From a virus: 10,457 nt of DNA. The notes under the pieces are model-generated. The model saw only the letters and a program-made list of their open reading frames with translations, did not search any database and was not told where the DNA came from. The position numbers and the translations under genes are program-made. The stretch lies in the UHGV virus genome UHGV-2079495. One strand, 5' to 3'. How positions within the stretch are numbered: position 1 is the first letter of the stretch; each line of letters begins with the position of its first letter. Below, in pieces: positions 1,140 through 10,299 of this stretch.

Positions 1140-1772
1140 TTACTTCCATCCACACGCTTTTTGAAGTGGCTTCAATGCCTCAGACAGACCAGCAACATCA
1201 AATGTCGCGCTCACGGGACTTTCATTGTAAGGCGTGATCTGAGTAAACATTGAGTTAGCCTGGCTCAGCGCCTTGACGAACTCAATGACATTGCCACGAT
1301 AAAATACCGATTTGGTATCGCTAGATATGTCCCATGTTTTCGTTTTTGCCTTCTGTTTATCCAAGCGAGATAACATCTGTGTTTCGTTCAACCCAAGATA
1401 GGTATCCCAATTGAGGAAAAGTTCTGTTTTTTTCTCGCGGCAAGTGATGTAAAGACTTGGTGTGATCGATTCCCCAAACTGTGACCGGAAAGAATCATTA
1501 GCAGAAAGGCTAATATAAACATTCTCTGAATCATCCACGGGTGAAGTTTTCGTGGATACCTGCCATTTTCCAACACCTACCACTGGCTTAGCCTCTTCGG
1601 CTACTTTCGGTGGAAGAACCTTATCGTAACAAGCTAAACGCGCATCACTTTTTGCCTCGGATTGGCATTTCATTAATGCGTCATTGTTAATATCGGCTTT
1701 AACTGGTTCTACCGCATACGCTGTTGATACAGCAGAAGAGCAAAGCGCCATAGCAATGATTATCTTTTTCAT
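1140..1772 (-). CDS. Secreted/periplasmic protein of unknown function with a Sec signal peptide and four Cys; carries a CYD motif. Family assignment (possibly VasI-like/DUF) is unverified
   Basis: ORF 1140..1787. The N-terminus MKKIIIAMALCSSAVSTAYA-VEP is a classical signal peptide with an AYA SPase I site. The preferred start is the ATG at 1772-1770, with AAGG about 8 nt upstream. The alternative ATG at 1787-1785 overlaps the upstream gene's stop as ATGA. The mature part is hydrophilic with Cys in MKCQSE, RLACYD, ITCREKK and KACGWK. A few hand-counted 60-nt lines give roughly 40-45% G+C. Confidence 0.7.
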   Translation of the reverse strand: MKKIIIAMALCSSAVSTAYAVEPVKADINNDALMKCQSEAKSDARLACYDKVLPPKVAEEAKPVVGVGKWQVSTKTSPVDDSENVYISLSANDSFRSQFGESITPSLYITCREKKTELFLNWDTYLGLNETQMLSRLDKQKAKTKTWDISSDTKSVFYRGNVIEFVKALSQANSMFTQITPYNESPVSATFDVAGLSEALKPLQKACGWK

Positions 1773-1783
1773 ACCATTACCTT

Positions 1784-2116
1784 TCATGATTTCGGGCGAG
1801 TAAAGAAAACAAACATTCCGATAATGATATCGCCAATAACCCAGATGGTTCCCAGCATCATCATCCCCAGCCCCGTACCAATTGCGGCTCCGGCCCGTTC
1901 TGCGTCTGAGGCTGCGTTATTGATAACGTCACTACTGCCGCCAGCCCCGGCAAAAATGCAATAGATCATAAAGATGTTAAACAGGATAAAAATCCATTTA
2001 ACGATCTTGCCAAATAATGAGCGCTTCGGCTTTCTGACCTGATGGCCGCAAGACGGGCATTTAAACGCTGAATCACTAATTTCTTTACTGCATTCCGGGC
2101 AGTTTACTAATGCCAT
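1784..2116 (-). CDS. Small zinc-ribbon membrane protein (N-terminal CPxC...CPxCG zinc ribbon, two predicted TM helices), unknown function
   Basis: ORF 1784..2137. Motif ...VNCPECSKEISDSAFKCPSCGHQ... is followed by hydrophobic stretches IVKWIFILFNIFMIYCIFAGAG and AAIGTGLGMMMLGTIWVIGDIIIGMFVFF. Preferred start is the ATG at 2116-2114 (MALVNCPEC), with GGAG/AGGA upstream; ATGs at 2137 and 2131 are alternatives. The stop overlaps the start of the downstream gene (ATGA), suggesting translational coupling. Confidence 0.65.
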   Translation of the reverse strand: MALVNCPECSKEISDSAFKCPSCGHQVRKPKRSLFGKIVKWIFILFNIFMIYCIFAGAGGSSDVINNAASDAERAGAAIGTGLGMMMLGTIWVIGDIIIGMFVFFTRPKS

Positions 2117-2180
2117 TTTCCTAGACTCCATAGACATGGTTACATAACCGCCATAAAGCCTATCAGTTGATTTTGTTTGA

Positions 2181-2498: not shown

Positions 2499-2527
2499 AG
2501 TATAACGCTTAAGACGTTGAATCGTCA
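2499..2527 (-). promoter_or_regulatory. Candidate sigma70 promoter for ogr (minus strand: TGACGA-N17-TATACT), overlapping the 3' end of D
   Basis: Minus-strand -10 TATACT at 2504-2499 and -35-like TGACGA at 2527-2522 with a 17-nt spacer, about 40 nt upstream of the ogr ATG. Judged by eye. Confidence 0.35.
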
Positions 2528-3627
2528 CTCTCCGCTGTCCAGTCGTCGATTTTTACTTCCAGTTCCAGCGACGTGGTAAACCCTCCCCCGCCAATATCGT
2601 GAACGCACCGCGTTATCGTCCAGTTCCCACTGTCGATCGTGGACTTAAAGCCGTAGACGCTGGCGGGCTGTTCCGGGTACAAATCTGCGCGGCCACGCGC
2701 TAGGGTGATGCTGAACGTCGCCGCCCCACGCTGCAACTCTCGCCACTTAGCCGCAGCGGCACGCTTCGCCGCCTTTTCCGTCTTGAAAGTTTTACGGATA
2801 ACAAAAACGTTACCTTCGGCCCCGGCCAGATAATCCCCTTCTTTTTTGCTTGATGCAGGTTCTTTCTTTTTGGCCTGGCTGGTGCGTCGCCTGCGGGTGG
2901 TTTTCTTCACGGTAGTGGATGGCTTTTTGCCAAAGTTGAGATCAAGCCAGTATGCAGTTACGCCCGTGTACGCGTCGCGGTCAGCTACGTTAAACCTATG
3001 TTTATCACCGCTTGACCGGACGATCTCGATCACTGGCAACGGCTTGCCGCTTTGCGTTACTCCCTTGCCCGGCGTGATAAACAGAAGCATACCGTTTTTA
3101 ATGGTTGCCACCGCGCCCAGCATTTCGGCCATACGCGTTAAGAAGCTGATATCTGATTCACTCGTCTGATCGGCGTGGTCTATCTCAATCTTCGCCAGTT
3201 CTTCGCTGACACCCGCACGCAGATCGTAGCGGCTGGCAATGCTGGCGACCACATCCCCCACGGTAATATCGTGCCAGCTATATTCCCGCTTCACGTTGAA
3301 GGTATCGCGGAAATCTGCGCTTCTGGCACTGATCGTTAGCTGGTCAGGCGGGCCAGCGTGTCCGATCTCGTCAACCGTATACACGCCCTTAAAAACCAAT
3401 GGATCATTATCCCAGCCCAGCGCCACCGATATCTTTGCGCCGCGTGATGGTAATGCTACCTGCCCGTCTGCATCATCCAGAGTCAGATCCAGTGTGTCCG
3501 CTTCGAAGCCCCGGTTATCTGTCAGGGAAAGGGAGATCAGCCGGTTATCCAGCGCCGTAAGCTGCTTACCTTCAATCTCAATACTGAACGCCGGGCGCGG
3601 CGAATATCGGTTTTCTGTCGTGTCCAT
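2509..3627 (-). CDS. D: P2 gpD-family tail protein (phage late control gene D protein)
   Basis: 372-aa ORF. Size (P2 gpD is about 387 aa) and position adjacent to ogr match, and the sequence character (MDTTENRYSPRPAFSIEIEGK..., C-terminal GGGGFTTSLELEV) fits the late-control-D family as I recall it. SD GAAGGGG lies upstream of the ATG at 3627. Confidence 0.88.
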   Translation of the reverse strand: MDTTENRYSPRPAFSIEIEGKQLTALDNRLISLSLTDNRGFEADTLDLTLDDADGQVALPSRGAKISVALGWDNDPLVFKGVYTVDEIGHAGPPDQLTISARSADFRDTFNVKREYSWHDITVGDVVASIASRYDLRAGVSEELAKIEIDHADQTSESDISFLTRMAEMLGAVATIKNGMLLFITPGKGVTQSGKPLPVIEIVRSSGDKHRFNVADRDAYTGVTAYWLDLNFGKKPSTTVKKTTRRRRTSQAKKKEPASSKKEGDYLAGAEGNVFVIRKTFKTEKAAKRAAAAKWRELQRGAATFSITLARGRADLYPEQPASVYGFKSTIDSGNWTITRCVHDIGGGGFTTSLELEVKIDDWTAESDDSTS

Positions 3628-3694
3628 ATCAACCCCTTCATCATGATGGGGTACATCGTCGCCACGCGCGCGCGCATGAACAACGCCCCGTCAT

Positions 3695-3762
3695 TGTTGC
3701 AGGTTGCTGACAACCCTTATTCATCGCATCGGCCTGCCATTGCCGCAATGATATTCGCAGTC
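3695..3762 (+). promoter_or_regulatory. Candidate Ogr-dependent late promoter (PF-like): TGT-N12-ACA dyad at 3695-3712 plus a -10-like GATATT at 3750-3755
   Basis: Sequence TGT-TGCAGGTTGCTG-ACA (extended TTGT...ACAA), centred at about 3703.5. That is about 55-60 bp upstream of a transcription start predicted from the -10-like hexamer, matching the architecture of P2 late promoters (TGT-N12-ACA centred near -55). It is followed by SD GAGG and the FI ATG at 3785. Confidence 0.55.
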
Positions 3763-3784
3763 ATTAAACTGGCGAGGCAAATAC

Positions 3785-4978
3785 ATGGCCACTAACTACC
3801 ATCACGGTGTAACCGTCACGGAAACCACCGACCTTAGCACGATGATCACCGACATTGATTCTGCGGTGATCGGCGTTGTCTGCACCGCTGATGATGCGGA
3901 CGAAACAGCGTTCCCGCTGGATACCCCTGTACTGATCACCCGCGTGGCTAACATGCTGGGCAAGGCAGGTAAAACCGGCACCCTGTTTACCACCCTGAAA
4001 GCGATTTCAGACCAGACCAGCCCGCAAACCATTGTGATCCGCGTTGCTGATGCTGCAAATATCGAACCGCCAGAAGGCGGCACCGCACAGACACAGGATC
4101 AACTGGTTATTGGCGGCACCGATGCAAACGGACGCTTTACCGGCATGTACGCGCTGCTGTCTGCCGAAATGCGCGTAGGCGTGCGCCCACGTGTGCTGGC
4201 TGTTCCCGGTCTTGATACGGAAGCGGTGGCCGCACAACTCGGCGTCATTGCCGAAAAGCTGCGCGCGTTTGCTTACGTGGCAGCGAACGGCTGCAACACT
4301 ATCGCCGAAGTGAAGGAATACCGCGAACAGTTCTCCCAGCGTGAAATGATGGTTATCTGGCCTAATTTCATCTGCTACGACACCAACGCCGGGGCGAATG
4401 CCACCGTGCCCGTGGGTGCCCATGCGGTTGGGATGCGCGCCAAAATCGACGCAACGCAGGGCTGGCATAAAACCATTTCCAACGTGCCCGTTAATAACGT
4501 GCTGGGGATGGATCGGGATATCTATTTCACGTTGCAGGGCACCGATACCGACGCCGACGAACTGAACGCAGCAGGCGTTACCACGCTGATCAAGCAGGAC
4601 GGCTACCGCATCTGGGGATCGCGTACCTGCGACGCGGAAACGTATATCTTCGAAAGCTATACCCGAACCGCGCAGATCGTTGCGGATACCGTCGCCGAAG
4701 CCCATTTCGCCTATGTTGATAAACCGCTTACCCCGTCGCTGGTAAAGGACATTGTGGACGGCATCAATAAGAAGCTGACCTCATATGTGACGGCTGGCAA
4801 GCTGCTGGGCGCCCGCTGCTGGTATGACCCGGAACCGAATACCTCGGAAACCCTGCGCAATGGTCAACTGACCATTAAGTACAACTACACCCCTGTTCCA
4901 CCGCTGGAAAATCTCAGCCTGGTACAGGAGTTCACCGACGAATATTTCGCTACGTTTTCCAGCGCAGTGAATAACTAA
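3785..4978 (+). CDS. FI: P2 gpFI-family contractile tail sheath protein
   Basis: 397 aa (P2 FI is about 396 aa). N-terminus MATNYHHGVTVTE... and overall sequence recognised as the myovirus P2-type sheath. Followed at a 12-nt spacing by the tube gene. Confidence 0.93.
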   Translation: MATNYHHGVTVTETTDLSTMITDIDSAVIGVVCTADDADETAFPLDTPVLITRVANMLGKAGKTGTLFTTLKAISDQTSPQTIVIRVADAANIEPPEGGTAQTQDQLVIGGTDANGRFTGMYALLSAEMRVGVRPRVLAVPGLDTEAVAAQLGVIAEKLRAFAYVAANGCNTIAEVKEYREQFSQREMMVIWPNFICYDTNAGANATVPVGAHAVGMRAKIDATQGWHKTISNVPVNNVLGMDRDIYFTLQGTDTDADELNAAGVTTLIKQDGYRIWGSRTCDAETYIFESYTRTAQIVADTVAEAHFAYVDKPLTPSLVKDIVDGINKKLTSYVTAGKLLGARCWYDPEPNTSETLRNGQLTIKYNYTPVPPLENLSLVQEFTDEYFATFSSAVNN

Positions 4979-4990
4979 CCGGGGGCGCTT

Positions 4991-5506
4991 ATGGCACTGC
5001 CTAAGAAACTCAAATATTTCAATATGTTCTTTGACGGGGATAACTACTTCGGCATGGTGCCGGAAATCACCCCCGCCAAACTCACCAAAAAAACCGAAGA
5101 CTACCAGGCGGGCGGTATGCCGGGTTCAGTTGCGGTGGATCTGGGCTTCGACGCTGGCGCCCTGGATATGGATATTACGCTGGGCGGCATGGATGCCGGG
5201 CTAATGAAAAAATGGGGCGTTACCACTGCGGACGGAATGCAGGTGCGCTTTGCTGGCTCTTACCAGGACGATGCGACCGGCGACGCCGTACCGTGCGAAA
5301 TCCAGACGCGTGGCCGCTTCACTGAACTGGATCCCGGTTCGGCAAAGGTTGGGGATGATACTTCGCATAAGTACACCCTGAAAAATACCTATTACAAGCT
5401 GACCATCAATAGCGAAGAAATTATCGAAATTGATGTGCTCAACATGATCTACAAAGTTGCCGGTGTGGATGTGCTGGAAAAACACCGCGCTAACATCGGC
5501 TTATAA
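4991..5506 (+). CDS. FII: P2 gpFII-family tail tube protein
   Basis: 171 aa (P2 FII is about 172 aa). Conserved position between sheath and E. N-terminus MALPKKLKYFNMFFDG... is typical of P2-like tube proteins. SD GGGGG upstream. Confidence 0.9.
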   Translation: MALPKKLKYFNMFFDGDNYFGMVPEITPAKLTKKTEDYQAGGMPGSVAVDLGFDAGALDMDITLGGMDAGLMKKWGVTTADGMQVRFAGSYQDDATGDAVPCEIQTRGRFTELDPGSAKVGDDTSHKYTLKNTYYKLTINSEEIIEIDVLNMIYKVAGVDVLEKHRANIGL

Positions 5507-5520
5507 GGAAACCCGGCACC

Positions 5521-5856
5521 ATGAGCAAGACCAAAGAAAACACCGTTATTCTTACCGCCCCTATTACGCGCGGTAAGACCAAAATCACCGAAGTGGCGAT
5601 CACTTCCGTGCTTAAACAGGCTGGATCACTGCGCGGCTTAAAAGCCTATGACGTGCTGACGTCCAACTATGACGCGCTGGTTATTCTGCTGCCCCGCGTT
5701 ACCGCTCCGGCATTAACCGCCGATGAGATTGCCCGAATGGATACCTGGGATTTTTGCCAGTTAGCCAACGCGGTGGTTGATTTTTTGCAACCCTCTTCGG
5801 ATCTGACCGCGACGGATACGGGCAACGAATCATCCGATGCCCCTGCGAACGCATAG
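5521..5856 (+). CDS. E: P2 gpE-family tail assembly chaperone (zero-frame product)
   Basis: 111-aa ORF immediately after FII and before the tape measure. Contains the TTTTTTG slippery heptamer near its 3' end. SD AAGGAAAC upstream. Confidence 0.85.
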   Translation: MSKTKENTVILTAPITRGKTKITEVAITSVLKQAGSLRGLKAYDVLTSNYDALVILLPRVTAPALTADEIARMDTWDFCQLANAVVDFLQPSSDLTATDTGNESSDAPANA

Positions 5857-5981: not shown

Positions 5982-8900
5982 ATGGCAGACCGCAATTTAA
6001 ATATCAGGGTGGCATTCAGCGCCCTGAATAATATGTCCCGCCCTGTCAACGCGGCGCGCCAGAGTGCCGCCGCGTTGGCGTCTCAAATCAATCAGACCAA
6101 AACCAGCATTAAAGGGCTTGAGCGTCAGGCAACCAGCTTTGACCGCCTCACCGCAGCCAATAAAAAAACCACCGAACAACTGGCCCAGGCGAAAGAACAG
6201 GCCCGGCAAATGGCGGCGGCTTATGGCCCGTTACGCCAGCGCAGCGCCGAACAGGTTGCCGCCCTCAATCAGCAACGTGCAGCCATTCGCCAGTTAACCC
6301 AGCAGCAGAAAGGCGAGCAGACGCAGCTTAACCAGTTGCGCGCCAGCTTCTACAGCGAAGGCATTGCGATCAGCAGCGCCAGCCGGGCGACGGAACAGAT
6401 CAACCAGCGCACCGCGCAATACAACCGCCAGCTTGCCGAACAGCAGCGACGGCTTGACGCTGTTAACCAGGCGCAGGCCCGTTACAGCCGCGCCAAAGAA
6501 ACCGGCGAAAAGATGATGAGCGGGGGGATGAAAACCGCCGCAGTAGGGGCGGCAACCCTCGCACCTGTCGCCGCTGCGGTTAAATCATACAGCAGCCTTG
6601 AAGACGCCATGAAAGGCGTAGCCAAACAGGTAAACGGCTTGCGTGACGACAGCGGCAACCGCACCCCGCAGTATGAAGAAATGCAGCGGGCGATCATGGA
6701 TGCCAGCGAAAAGCTACCAATGGCTAACGGCGCTGTTGACTATGCCGCCCTGGTCGAAGGTGGCGCGCGCATGGGCGTGGCAAACAGCGATGATCCGTGG
6801 GAAAAACAAAAAGCCGATCTGCTGGCTTTCGCCAGCATGGCGGCAAAAGCTTCGGTAGCCTTTGAACTGCCCGCCGATCAGCTTTCTGAAAGCCTCGGTA
6901 AGATTGCCGGGCTGTATAAAATCCCTACCCAGAATATTGAACAGTTAGGCGACGCCATAAACTACCTGGACGATAACGCGAAGTCGAAAGGCTCCGATAT
7001 TATCGACGTGCTCCAGCGCGTTGGCGGACTTGCCAGCCAACTGGATTACAAGCAAGCCGCCGCGCTGGGTTCCACCTTCCTGACGCTTGGATCACCTGCC
7101 GAAGTTGCCGCCAGCGCAACCAATGCAATGGTGCGCGAACTATCGATCGCCACAGTACAAAGCGATAAATTTTTGGGTGCGCTGGATGAAATCGGCATCA
7201 ATGCTGAAAAAGTCCAGAAAAGCATGTCAGTGGACGCGATGGGCACGATCATTTCAGTGCTGGAAGCGTCCAAAAAACTTGCACCAGATAAGCAGGTAGC
7301 CAACCTTACTCAGATTTTCGGTAAAGAGTTCGGCGATGATGCGCAGAAACTTGCGAACAACCTGCCCGAACTACGCCGCCAGATAGAACTGACGCAGGGC
7401 GCAGCCGCTAAAGGTTCCATGAATCGGGAATCTGATATCAATAAAGCGTCCCTTTCAGCTCAGTGGCAACTGACCAAAACCGGCGCGGTTAACGCATTGA
7501 GTTCAGCAGGGGAAACGCTCCGCGAACCGCTGATGGATATCATGCTTACCGTCAGTAAGGTGGTTGGCAGCGTCCGCCGCTGGGTTGAGGCAAACCCGGC
7601 TCTGGTTGGCTCAATCATGAAAGTCACCGCAGCCATAGGCGCGTTGCTGGTTGTCGTGGGTGGCCTGATGCTGACCATCGGCGCAGTGCTCGGCCCGATG
7701 GCACTTGTTCGCCTCAGCTTCACCACGCTGGCTGGCTCCGGTGGGGTAACTCCCCTCATAGGCTCGCTGGGAAAATTATCCAGCACATTACGCGGGCTGA
7801 TCCCCTCACTATCTGGCGTGGGCCGAAGTATTAAAGACTGGCCTGCCCTCTTCCGATCTGCTGCGTCTGGCATTACCCAATTTAGTAAACAAGCTATTGG
7901 CGGGTTAAACACAGCGTTAATGGCACTTTCACGCGGTGCTGTTGCTGCCGGACAGGGGCTATTTACCCTATTCACAAGGCCTATGACGGCTATAACCTGG
8001 CTTGGTAATGGCCTCAGAACTCTGGCGACCTCCGGTTTCGGCGCTTTGCTGAACGTTGGACGCACCGTAATGATGGCGTTGGGTGGCGGGTTATCATTAC
8101 TTCTTAGCCCTATTGGAATACTGGTAATCGCTTTATCAGCAGCAGCGATCGCCGTTATTAAATTCTGGGAACCTATAAAAGCCTTTTTCACTGGCTTTTA
8201 CACCGGGTTAATGAGTGGCTTACAGCCTTTAACCTCAGCATTTAGTACAGCCTTTGCACCACTAGCCCCACTCTTTGACTCTATCGGTAATGCTGTCGGT
8301 GGCGTCTGGGAGTGGTTCACAAAACTATTCGAACCTATCCAGTTCTCCAGCGAAGCGCTAGCCTCCTGCACCAGTGCCGGGGAAACGTTCGGTAAGGTTG
8401 TAGGTAACGCTCTATCTGCATTAACACCAATAATCGAAGGAATAGCGCGCGGTATAGGATGGGTACTGGAAAAACTCGGCGCCATCCCCGACGCAACAAA
8501 AGCAGCGCAGCAAGCTGCGGAAAGTATGCACAAAGACCCTGTTGTCTGGGAGTGGGATCCGCAGCAAAAGAAAATGGTTAAAAAGGGTTGGAACTGGTCG
8601 CCGAAAGACGATCAGCAGAAGAAAACCAACCAGAAGCAACAGCAGGCCATTGACCAGCAGAAAAAGCAGGAAAGCTTAATTAACTCGCTCAAGGGCCCGG
8701 CCAACATCGTGCCGAAGATGAGCAGCAGCCTGGATAAGATCGCCACCAATACCACGGAGAAGAAAGACGGCCCCGGCGAAATTGTCTTCAAGAATAAGCA
8801 GCCCTATATCCCGATCCGTGGTGGATATTCGGAACCGCTTAAGCAGGTGCAGCGCCAACTACCATCCCTTACCGATTGGGTGACGCAGCAGGCCGGATCG

Positions 8901-9152
8901 CTGATCGCTTCCGTTACGCCTTGGCAGGTTGAGAAGCCCGCCGCACGGATGCCTGTTTCGGCGTCTCCGTCTGCGGCTTCCGTCGCTGCGCTGATGCCTG
9001 CTCCGGGTGGCGATGTATATAACCTTAACTTCGACTTTAGCGGCCAGAAACTGGATGAAGAAACCATTATCAGGCGCGTGCGCGAAGAACTTGCGTTAGC
9101 GAAGCAACAGGCCGACCGGCGCAAGCGCTCCCAACTGACCGATCACGTCTAA
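5982..9152 (+). CDS. T: Tail tape measure protein (P2 gpT family)
   Basis: 1056-aa ORF immediately after E/E'. N-terminal Q/A-rich, coiled-coil-like region, a central hydrophobic Gly/Ala-rich segment and a C-terminal K/Q-rich region, typical of tape measure proteins. Position between E' and U is as in P2. Confidence 0.9.
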   Translation: MADRNLNIRVAFSALNNMSRPVNAARQSAAALASQINQTKTSIKGLERQATSFDRLTAANKKTTEQLAQAKEQARQMAAAYGPLRQRSAEQVAALNQQRAAIRQLTQQQKGEQTQLNQLRASFYSEGIAISSASRATEQINQRTAQYNRQLAEQQRRLDAVNQAQARYSRAKETGEKMMSGGMKTAAVGAATLAPVAAAVKSYSSLEDAMKGVAKQVNGLRDDSGNRTPQYEEMQRAIMDASEKLPMANGAVDYAALVEGGARMGVANSDDPWEKQKADLLAFASMAAKASVAFELPADQLSESLGKIAGLYKIPTQNIEQLGDAINYLDDNAKSKGSDIIDVLQRVGGLASQLDYKQAAALGSTFLTLGSPAEVAASATNAMVRELSIATVQSDKFLGALDEIGINAEKVQKSMSVDAMGTIISVLEASKKLAPDKQVANLTQIFGKEFGDDAQKLANNLPELRRQIELTQGAAAKGSMNRESDINKASLSAQWQLTKTGAVNALSSAGETLREPLMDIMLTVSKVVGSVRRWVEANPALVGSIMKVTAAIGALLVVVGGLMLTIGAVLGPMALVRLSFTTLAGSGGVTPLIGSLGKLSSTLRGLIPSLSGVGRSIKDWPALFRSAASGITQFSKQAIGGLNTALMALSRGAVAAGQGLFTLFTRPMTAITWLGNGLRTLATSGFGALLNVGRTVMMALGGGLSLLLSPIGILVIALSAAAIAVIKFWEPIKAFFTGFYTGLMSGLQPLTSAFSTAFAPLAPLFDSIGNAVGGVWEWFTKLFEPIQFSSEALASCTSAGETFGKVVGNALSALTPIIEGIARGIGWVLEKLGAIPDATKAAQQAAESMHKDPVVWEWDPQQKKMVKKGWNWSPKDDQQKKTNQKQQQAIDQQKKQESLINSLKGPANIVPKMSSSLDKIATNTTEKKDGPGEIVFKNKQPYIPIRGGYSEPLKQVQRQLPSLTDWVTQQAGSLIASVTPWQVEKPAARMPVSASPSAASVAALMPAPGGDVYNLNFDFSGQKLDEETIIRRVREELALAKQQADRRKRSQLTDHV

Positions 9153-9161
9153 GGCAATATC

Positions 9162-9611
9162 ATGATGATGATTCTGGGGATGTTCCCCTTTTCACTGCAA
9201 ACCACACCTTACCAGAGTGCGAATAAAACCAACTCCTGGCGGCACGTCAAAAACGATCGCGTGGGGAAATCCCCGCGCTATCAGTTCATCGGCGCAGATG
9301 AAGAACCGTTCGTACTCAGCGGCACGCTGTACCCCGAAATAAGCGGCGGTGATGTGTCGCTTGTCATGCTGGAAACTATGGCTTTTTCCGGGCGCCCGTG
9401 GCCCCTGATAGAAGGCACGGGCAGGATCTACGGCATGTATGTAATTGAGCAGATCACGCAAAACCGGACGGAGTTTTTTAAGGACGGGAAGGCAAAGAAA
9501 ATTGATTTCACGCTCAACCTGAAACGGGTAAGCGAGGACATACGGGAAAAGCTGGCTGAAACCACTACCGACGATCTCTTCTCTCTGGTGAAAACCAACC
9601 TTTCGATATAA
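9162..9611 (+). CDS. U: P2 gpU-family tail protein
   Basis: 149 aa (P2 gpU is about 159 aa), directly downstream of T (9-nt gap, SD AAGG). N-terminus MMMILGMFPFSLQTTPYQ... resembles gpU as I recall it. Confidence 0.85.
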   Translation: MMMILGMFPFSLQTTPYQSANKTNSWRHVKNDRVGKSPRYQFIGADEEPFVLSGTLYPEISGGDVSLVMLETMAFSGRPWPLIEGTGRIYGMYVIEQITQNRTEFFKDGKAKKIDFTLNLKRVSEDIREKLAETTTDDLFSLVKTNLSI

Positions 9612-9614
9612 GAA

Positions 9615-9640
9615 AAGCGGGCCATTGCCCGCTTCGTCTT
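9615..9640. terminator. Hairpin AAGCGGGC-CATT-GCCCGCTT between convergent U and invertase genes; possible bidirectional terminator
   Basis: 8-bp stem at 9615-9634, 4 nt after the U stop. The plus-strand downstream tract CGTCTTCC is only weakly U-rich; the minus-strand tract (TTTCTTATA) is better, but the stem lies about 85 nt from the invertase stop. Confidence 0.4.
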
Positions 9641-9717
9641 CCGTAATACACCACCATAACTGACCGTGCTACAGCACCGTTAAAAGTGACCGTACTCGAT
9701 ACACACGGCCAGCACGG

Positions 9718-10299
9718 TTATAACCGGCCATGCGTGCCGGAATTCTTATCTCTGGTCGCTGGGAATTTTTTGTAAAGCGTAGATATCCCAACATCATAAA
9801 TTATGGCAACCCTCCGGCGCGATTCCCCTGCCGCTATTAACCTACCCGCCTGCGCCCATTGTTCTGGTGTTAGTTTTGGACGTCTACCGCCGATCCTTCC
9901 CTGCGCGCGAGCGGCCACCAGTCCTGCACGCGTACGCTCGACAATCAATTCTCTTTCCATCTCTGCCAGTGCTCCCATAACATGAAAAAAGAAACGCCCC
10001 ATTGGTGTTGAGGTATCAATACTGTCAGTCAGGCTGCGGAAGTTCACGGAACGTTGCTTTAGTTCCTCCACCAGAATGACCAAGTTCCGCATACTCCGCC
10101 CAAGACGATCCAGCTTCCAGACAACAAGCGTATCTTCTGGAGAAAGGCGCTTTAGTAATTTTTTAAGCCCTGGCCTTTCCGCTGTTCTCCCGCTCATTTT
10201 ATCTTCAAAAATTATCTCACATCCTGACCGCTCAAGCGCATCACGTTGCAAAGCCGTGTTCTGGTCATTTGTTGATACGCGCACATATCCAATAAGCAT
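9718..10299 (-). CDS. pin: Serine-recombinase DNA invertase of the Pin/Gin/Cin/Hin family
   Basis: 193-aa ORF MLIGYVRVSTNDQNT...DTLVVWKLDRLGRSM...SLTDSIDTSTPMGRFFFHVMGALAEMERELIVERT...STLYKKF. It is near-collinear with E. coli e14 Pin and Salmonella Hin as I recall them, with the catalytic Ser in the RVSTNDQ motif and a C-terminal HTH. SD AAGGAA upstream of the ATG at 10299-10297. Confidence 0.93.
   Translation of the reverse strand: MLIGYVRVSTNDQNTALQRDALERSGCEIIFEDKMSGRTAERPGLKKLLKRLSPEDTLVVWKLDRLGRSMRNLVILVEELKQRSVNFRSLTDSIDTSTPMGRFFFHVMGALAEMERELIVERTRAGLVAARAQGRIGGRRPKLTPEQWAQAGRLIAAGESRRRVAIIYDVGISTLYKKFPATRDKNSGTHGRL

Follow-up and report, generated by a model that had tools for sequence, protein, structure and literature searches.

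The 157-bp gap between genes D and FI (positions 3628-3784) probably houses two Ogr-dependent late promoters, placed compactly back to back and served by one common activator site. This assignment was read from a 10,457-nucleotide stretch of viral DNA (UHGV virus genome UHGV-2079495, hereafter the window), in which D runs on the minus strand and FI on the plus strand, and from a comparison of the gap with its relatives. An earlier note on this DNA had singled out two motifs upstream of D, an interrupted palindrome overlapping the D Shine-Dalgarno sequence and a 16-nt alternating pyrimidine-purine tract, and had proposed that they belong to a structured D leader and may relate to D expression or to a rearrangement. 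The second of these motifs falls within the spacer of the predicted D promoter, P_D, and represents a strongly conserved alternating CG spacer that was apparently undescribed in the literature searched.

The window is part of a Senquatrovirus (SEN4/5-like) prophage of the P2 family adjoining fieF. It is 98.5% identical to SEN4/5, a Salmonella phage of the genus Senquatrovirus in the family Peduoviridae. SEN4/5 is a viable, plaque-forming myovirus (PMC5261728), and the same prophage is present beside fieF in ~31 complete E. coli genomes. Gene identities were assigned by Pfam search. On the minus strand the window carries fieF (1-921), genes for a VasI-like protein (PF11319, 1140-1787) and a zinc-ribbon protein (1784-2137), an ogr-like activator gene (2218-2460; PF04606, E = 1.5e-13) and, upstream of the latter, gene D for the tail/baseplate hub protein (2509-3627; PF05954, E = 6.6e-19). 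The D reading frame starts with the ATG at 3627 and is 99.7% identical to SEN5 D. On the plus strand, the tail sheath gene FI (3785-4978, recognized by its sheath domains) heads the FI-FII-E-T-U operon, with FII (tube) at 4991-5506, E at 5521-5856 and U at 9162-9611; the long reading frame that separates E from U (5982-9152) was assigned to the tape measure gene T by its position and the SEN5 annotation. A gene for a serine invertase of the resolvase/invertase family (Hin/Gin-type; 9718-10299, minus strand) lies directly beyond U.

Some features outside the D/FI gap also deserve mention. The two overlapping genes at 1140-2137 (minus strand) form a cargo segment between the ogr terminator and host fieF. 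At this spot, SEN5 and E. coli 0H26 harbor a different small gene and Salmonella strain s1 harbors the same version; the segment has the appearance of an exchangeable moron locus at the end of the prophage. For the central part of T (7733-8655), BLASTN gives no match to SEN5 or E. coli 0H26, while the flanks match at 93-99%, and the T product is 1056 aa long in the window versus ~975 aa in these two relatives. Near the end of E, a TTTTTTG slippery heptamer (5781-5787) lies where the -1 frameshift conserved in P2 E/E' is expected. The same D/FI region is also found in a separate 32,330-bp record from E. coli 2020N21-246-1 (NZ_JBQJRQ010000002.1), with a chromosomal copy in a related assembly. 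The record probably represents a phage genome that has been excised as a circle and would then point to an active prophage.

The architecture of the gap is centered on the sole TGT-N12-ACA match in the window, an Ogr/Delta-type activator box (TGTTGCAGGTTGCTGACA, 3695-3712) that would be common to both promoters. On the D side, the core of the predicted promoter P_D consists of the -35-like hexamer TTGTTC (3678-3683, minus strand; letters 12-17 after the box), a 17-bp spacer (ATGCGCGCGCGCGTGGC, 3661-3677, minus strand) that contains nearly the whole of the alternating tract, and the -10 hexamer GACGAT (3655-3660, minus strand), at a distance of exactly 34 nt to the box. Toward FI, the core of the predicted promoter P_F (TCGCAT, 17 bp, AATGAT) is arranged in the same way, with its -10 hexamer at 3747-3752 on the plus strand, again 34 nt from the box. 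Extrapolation from phage P2, where transcription starts 7-8 nt after the hexamer, predicts a D start at 3647-3648 and an FI start at ~3759. The predicted starts 3648 and 3759 are 111 bp apart, and the center of the box is 55.5 bp from both.

This geometry closely reproduces that of the P2 pP/pO pair. Our P2 promoter data come from the P2 GenBank record and a secondary citation; the record lists one 'activator binding site; pO, pP promoters' in the interval that separates these two divergent promoters, and their mapped starts (3016 for pP and 3127 for pO) are likewise 111 bp apart. The rule of box, 34 nt, -10 hexamer, 7 nt and start is exact for both of these promoters and holds within 1-3 nt for pF. 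Common to the two pairs are the dyad site midway between back-to-back late promoters, the hexamer 34 nt to each side and a G+C-rich spacer on the arm serving a low-copy protein (CGCGGGGCGCG in P2 pP, (CG)5 in the window). They differ in the operons that they drive, P-Q and O-S in P2 versus D-ogr and FI-U in the window, and in the strict CG alternation of the window spacer; moreover, the P2 starts are mapped, whereas those of the window are read from sequence. In P2, D lacks a separate promoter and stands at the end of the F operon. A wider resemblance links the gap to P2 pF, the promoter of the FI operon, and to the Delta/B-activated late promoters of P4 and 186, which combine a TGT-N12-ACA-type box around -55 with a weak -35, an A2/T6 -10 and an Ogr/Delta zinc-finger activator. 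P2 pF differs in being unidirectional, in having fun(Z) upstream and in lacking an alternating CG spacer. The window thus displays the hallmarks of an Ogr-type late promoter, namely a dyad box ~55 bp before the predicted start, its own Ogr-family activator gene and a weak core with an A2/T6 -10 ahead of a morphogenetic operon, together with the hallmark of the pP/pO type, one box equidistant from two divergent -10 elements.

Comparison with related prophages offers a greater level of detail about which parts of the gap are maintained. We collected 44 distinct D/FI intergenic sequences from ~50 species, grouped them at 85% identity into 19 lineages and aligned them with MAFFT, anchored on the columns of the box. 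The activator box is conserved across all 44 gaps. On the D side, the spacing from the box to the A2/T6 hexamer is 34 nt in 41-42 of the 44 gaps and 35 nt in 2. The FI side displays the same spacing, and A2 and T6 of its -10 are ~90% conserved. A similar level (~90%) is reached by the TT of the -35-like element of P_D, for which the consensus is TTGTnn. The best-conserved columns of the D side are the proximal half of the box (GCGACAAC), this TT and the CG tract. Hence, with regard to the earlier proposal to compare the D-upstream region across relatives, the tract proved to be among the best-conserved elements of the gap, whereas the palindrome is confined to the closest relatives. Three Providencia loci (L016, L017, L044) have a TCT-N12-AGA box instead of TGT-N12-ACA, with both half-sites altered symmetrically, and a TCT-N12-ACA box is found in many other lineages. 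The symmetric change in Providencia suggests a co-evolved activator specificity.

A generic sigma-70 scan of the window called neither P_D nor P_F. This outcome is expected for promoters of the activator-dependent type, but the scan lends them no support. GACGAT is a poor -10 hexamer, and in the group to which the window belongs the TG lies one base too far upstream for a canonical extended -10. The scan returned two matches, with 0.7 expected. TCGCCA-16-TATCAT (3775-3748, minus strand) was considered as a D promoter with a long leader and set aside; it mirrors the P_F -10 and the FI Shine-Dalgarno sequence. Two small ORFs that overlap each other in this region were rejected as well. One (3643-3795, plus strand, 50 aa) is listed in the SEN5 annotation under hypothetical protein SEN5_27; it covers the activator box together with both promoters and is probably not a gene. 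The other is at 3537-3713 on the minus strand. Both were dismissed because a 1-nt indel in the NA3664-type lineage breaks the two frames.

The arrangement of the genes around the gap suggests how the pair could operate. The Ogr-like zinc-finger protein encoded by the prophage itself has a CX2CX22CX4C cysteine motif that matches the description of Ogr in PMC3931495, which also gives the TGT-N12-ACA consensus. We infer that this protein binds the dyad at 3695-3712 and, from a position at about -55, would recruit RNA polymerase to two weak, symmetric core promoters, each 34 nt from the box. P_F, with its -10 AATGAT and a start at ~3759, would then drive the genes for the sheath and tube as well as E, T and U. 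P_D (TTGTTC, GACGAT at 3660-3655, start at ~3648) would drive D, the first gene of its unit, together with ogr, which follows D after 48 nt. The unit probably ends at a strong intrinsic terminator located directly after the ogr stop codon (2215-2193, minus strand), in which a 9-bp stem is followed by a T-run. Since the P_D unit reaches a terminator past ogr, P_D would not only transcribe D but also read into ogr late in infection. A sigma-70-like site, GTGACG-18-TATACT (2528-2499, minus strand), lies inside the 3' end of D, ahead of ogr. This promoter-like site and the terminator mirror the P2 GenBank record, in which ogr has the promoter Pogr and shares a terminator with the F operon. The suggested link of the flagged motifs to D expression can therefore be retained in part: the gap carries a predicted D promoter and the CG tract is its conserved spacer, but a role of the palindrome finds no support.

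The alternating tract was described correctly in the earlier note. Positions 3663-3678 read CACGCGCGCGCGCATG, a perfect 16-nt pyrimidine-purine alternation with (CG)5 at 3665-3674. As for its frequency, 0.36 alternating runs of 16 nt are expected per window, and at least one was found in 42 of 200 shuffles; for CGCGCGCG, 1.0 occurrence is expected per window. Taken alone, neither the tract nor the palindrome is more than what chance would produce. The significance of the tract emerges from its conservation. CGCGC is present in the D-side -35/spacer segment of all 19 lineages (more than 15 genera), at a background of 6.3% of 23-nt windows in the same loci, and CGCGCG is present in 16 of 19, at a background of 1.1%. 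Binomial P values for such counts are inflated, since the lineages are related, and the FI arm of the same gaps was used as an internal control for the D arm. Only 2 of 19 lineages have CGCGC on the FI side, and the median alternating run is 4 nt there versus 12 nt on the D side. The tract start shifts among lineages from letter 17 to letter 24 after the box. The last letters of the tract before the hexamer are (C/T)GTGn or CATGn in most lineages, and its 3' end thereby also supplies the TGn of an extended -10.

The same element recurs at other late promoters. The SEN5 genome contains CGCGCGCG at four places, three of which are P_D, P_P and P_V, at the same offset from a perfect TGT-N12-ACA box and preceded by GCGTTGTT or TATTGT. 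P_P and P_V serve operons other than that of D, those for portal/terminase and baseplate, respectively; their core is nearly identical to that of P_D and consists of the box, ~10 nt, GCGTTGTT, (GC)4-5, 5-6 nt and the -10. A weight matrix built from the D-side sites only ranks P_D, P_P, P_V and P_O as its top four matches in SEN5. At P_P, tracts are found just before TAATCT in P88 (TCGCGCGCGGG), phiT5282H (ATCGCGCGCGGGG) and 3LV2017 (TACGCGCGCGCGGG). These recurrences argue for a promoter-class element that is not specific to D. Within the back-to-back pairs, it is the arm driving low-copy products (P_P, P_D) that has the tract; the arm for abundant products (P_O, P_F) usually lacks it, an exception being P88 P_F, which carries TACGCGCGTG. 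The SEN4/5 paper (PMC5261728) neither annotates nor describes the SEN5 P_P and P_V promoters. In SEN5 (2987-3004), the P_P start predicted by the spacing rule nearly coincides with the annotated ATG of the terminase gene (2992), which implies a leaderless mRNA or a mis-annotated start codon.

The P2 pP promoter also indicates on which side of the transcription start the tract is to be placed. In pP, CGCGGGGCGCG occupies the tract position upstream of the -10 of a mapped start, indicating that the tract is untranscribed spacer DNA and not leader. By this homology the tract of the window is upstream of the predicted D start, and the earlier assignment of the tract to the D leader has to be abandoned.

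What the alternating spacer does for the promoter can be approached from its composition. [quoted passage not shown] The most likely and most conservative reading is that the tract makes the core promoter deliberately poor, and thereby strictly activator-dependent and/or supercoil-sensitive, as part of a conserved core-promoter type that SEN5 would use at P_P and P_V as well. Such a role leaves the strict CG alternation, beyond mere G+C richness, unexplained (for example CGCACGCACATGC in P88 P_D). It is possible, though we hold it to be unlikely, that the strictly alternating spacer is a dedicated element that marks one arm per pair (P_P and P_D, as opposed to P_O and P_F, in most of the phages compared) as well as P_V and sets promoter output in a structure-specific way, either by torsional coupling to the partner promoter with B-to-Z-like untwisting or by recognition through RNA polymerase, Ogr or another factor. 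If so, the element would fix the ratio of low-copy products (portal, terminase, baseplate hub, Ogr) to high-copy products (capsid, sheath, tube).

Two narrower explanations of the tract were weighed in this context. With its 16-nt perfect alternation including (CG)5 next to a divergent promoter, the sequence resembles Z-DNA-forming (CG)n tracts upstream of genes and might adopt this form; it differs from them in lying inside a promoter spacer. The CG tract of the window is much shorter than the tracts that flip to Z-DNA in vivo. A torsion sensor, in which negative supercoiling from the partner promoter or from replication would convert the tract to Z-DNA or a strongly untwisted state, shift the phasing of the -35 and -10 and so couple P_D to P_F, would account for the preservation of the pyrimidine-purine alternation where CG is lost (CGCACGCACATGC in P88, TACGCGCACGCGTGCG in Photorhabdus) and for the presence of the tract on one arm of each back-to-back pair. 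It also agrees with the influence of spacer GC content on supercoiling sensitivity (PMC8695583). The energetics, roughly estimated, place a 16-bp tract near break-even at sigma ~-0.04, but leave it unfavorable by ~+6.5 kcal/mol at sigma ~-0.025, the typical unconstrained value in vivo. Moreover, most lineages have runs of only 7-12 nt, the Xenorhabdus run is interrupted (CGCGCCCGCGC), and SEN5 P_V has the tract with no obvious divergent partner. We therefore consider a torsion sensor distinctly improbable. A lower probability still is given to the idea that the tract, or the palindrome at the start site, is a site for another protein, such as a repressor or a second activator contact, defining one class of late promoters. 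Conservation far tighter than usual for a spacer and the recurrence at P_P, P_V and P_D would fit such a site, and so would the operator-like appearance of the sister-lineage palindromes, a 24-bp near-palindrome right after the -10 in the NA3664 type and perfect 10-bp arms in IMG/VR contig L105. However, we found no candidate protein, the position of the tract within the spacer varies between lineages, and the palindromes differ in sister lineages and are missing elsewhere. The poor, activator-dependent core promoter remains the reading that we prefer.

The palindrome itself is present as the earlier note had it. At 3633-3651 the sequence reads CCCC TTC ATCATGAT GGGG (CCCC-N11-GGGG); read on the D strand, its 3' arm corresponds to the D Shine-Dalgarno sequence GAAGGGG (3639-3633, minus strand), located 5 nt before the ATG. 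This arrangement resembles leader hairpins that sequester a Shine-Dalgarno sequence, in that a G-rich ribosome-binding site stands opposite a C-run able to pair with it. The stem of the window comprises four G-C pairs and a weak inner helix, probably straddles the transcription start, is unconserved and is broken in variants, all of which set it apart from such hairpins. In isolation, the 19-nt element folds with -7.3 kcal/mol and has its GGGG paired. As a suggestive parallel, the sister lineage of the E. coli NA3664 type, with members in E. coli NA3664, Hafnia, Dryocola and Enterobacter soli, carries at the same place another palindrome (CCCTCAccaaTGAGGG, -7.7 kcal/mol) that also pairs the Shine-Dalgarno sequence, and the natural substitutions in this type are G-U compatible or extend the stem.

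Other folding results and the natural variants point in the opposite direction and weigh more heavily. The 123-nt D-upstream RNA folds like its shuffles (z = -0.32), at odds with the structured D leader that had been proposed. The predicted start (3648/3647) falls within the 5' arm or past it; a leader beginning at this predicted point folds with only -1.0 kcal/mol (z = +1.6). In the other 17 of 19 lineages the hairpin is absent, and their short leaders are mostly less structured than shuffles. A change of GGGG to GGAG (IMG/VR L097, L102) destroys the stem and improves the Shine-Dalgarno sequence, and a change of ATCATGAT to ATGATGAT (IMG/VR L005, L098) destroys the inner helix; neither is compensated. 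A search for covariation in the Shine-Dalgarno pairing among relatives yielded no compensatory double change, with the hairpin in 2 of 19 lineages, and Rfam searches, both with the gathering threshold and with E <= 1, gave no match. A CCCC/GGGG hairpin in the D mRNA that occludes the ribosome-binding site and so limits or regulates D translation is not supported, in view of the weak folding of the predicted leader, the narrow distribution of the hairpin and the variants that break the pairing, and we rate it as very unlikely. In our preferred interpretation, the palindrome would span the start site and the first ~15 nt of the D mRNA. We regard its GGGG arm as no more than the ribosome-binding site and assign the C-run to the start site or the discriminator. 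In the sister lineage, the 24-bp near-palindrome GGTACCCTCAccaaTGAGGGAACC follows directly after the P_D -10 (L002, 8146-8180), and the arms in IMG/VR contig L105 correspond to -18.4 kcal/mol as RNA. The sister-lineage palindrome could be a lineage-specific operator or a 5'-terminal stem-loop.

The divergent orientation of D and FI had been taken to reflect an inversion, to which the two motifs might be related. Relative to P2 the FI-U block is indeed reversed, so that D faces FI across the gap. The same layout is shared by Senquatrovirus, Xuanwuvirus (P88), Novemvirus (phiT5282H), Reginaelenavirus (3LV2017) and prophages in ~50 species. Among 52 genome loci with D relatives of 60-100% identity, whose hosts range from Salmonella as far as Photorhabdus, Providencia and Erwinia, FI is divergent directly upstream of D in essentially all that are long enough. 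The distribution therefore indicates an ancient layout common to at least four Peduoviridae genera and not a recent event. That the motifs are scars or recombination sites of an FI-U inversion, perhaps brought about by the neighboring Hin/Gin-type invertase, has next to nothing in its favor beyond the reversal itself and the location of the invertase gene (9718-10299) directly past U. Against it stand the breadth of the layout over four genera and the prophages of ~50 species, its occurrence in SEN5 and 3LV2017, which have no annotated invertase gene, and the position of the invertase, which adjoins the usual target of such enzymes, opposed tail-fibre assembly genes. No inverted words of 8 nt or longer are common to 3600-3800 and 9590-9740, and the longest inverted repeats of the window include nothing relevant to the FI-U borders and no paired sites of the hix/gix type. 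The proposed connection with a rearrangement accordingly fails on both the age of the layout and the lack of inverted repeats joining the block borders. In E. coli 0H26 and P88, the invertase lies beside opposed tail-fibre assembly genes, with which it forms a host-range switch.

Taken as a bidirectional Ogr-type late promoter, the D/FI gap would be of known design, the new aspect being that D appears to have acquired an arm of its own. This would explain the expression of D, and probably of ogr, in a large, widespread P2-like branch in which D is split from the FI operon. The branch comprises Senquatrovirus, Xuanwuvirus, Novemvirus, Reginaelenavirus and the prophages of ~50 enterobacterial species, and in it the design of P2 pP/pO would have been reused. 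The succession of box, 34 nt and -10, combined with alternating CG in the spacer of one arm, may serve as an annotation signature for late promoters in such prophages. The unusually conserved spacer could further provide a tractable case for studying how spacer sequence or structure controls activator-dependent transcription.
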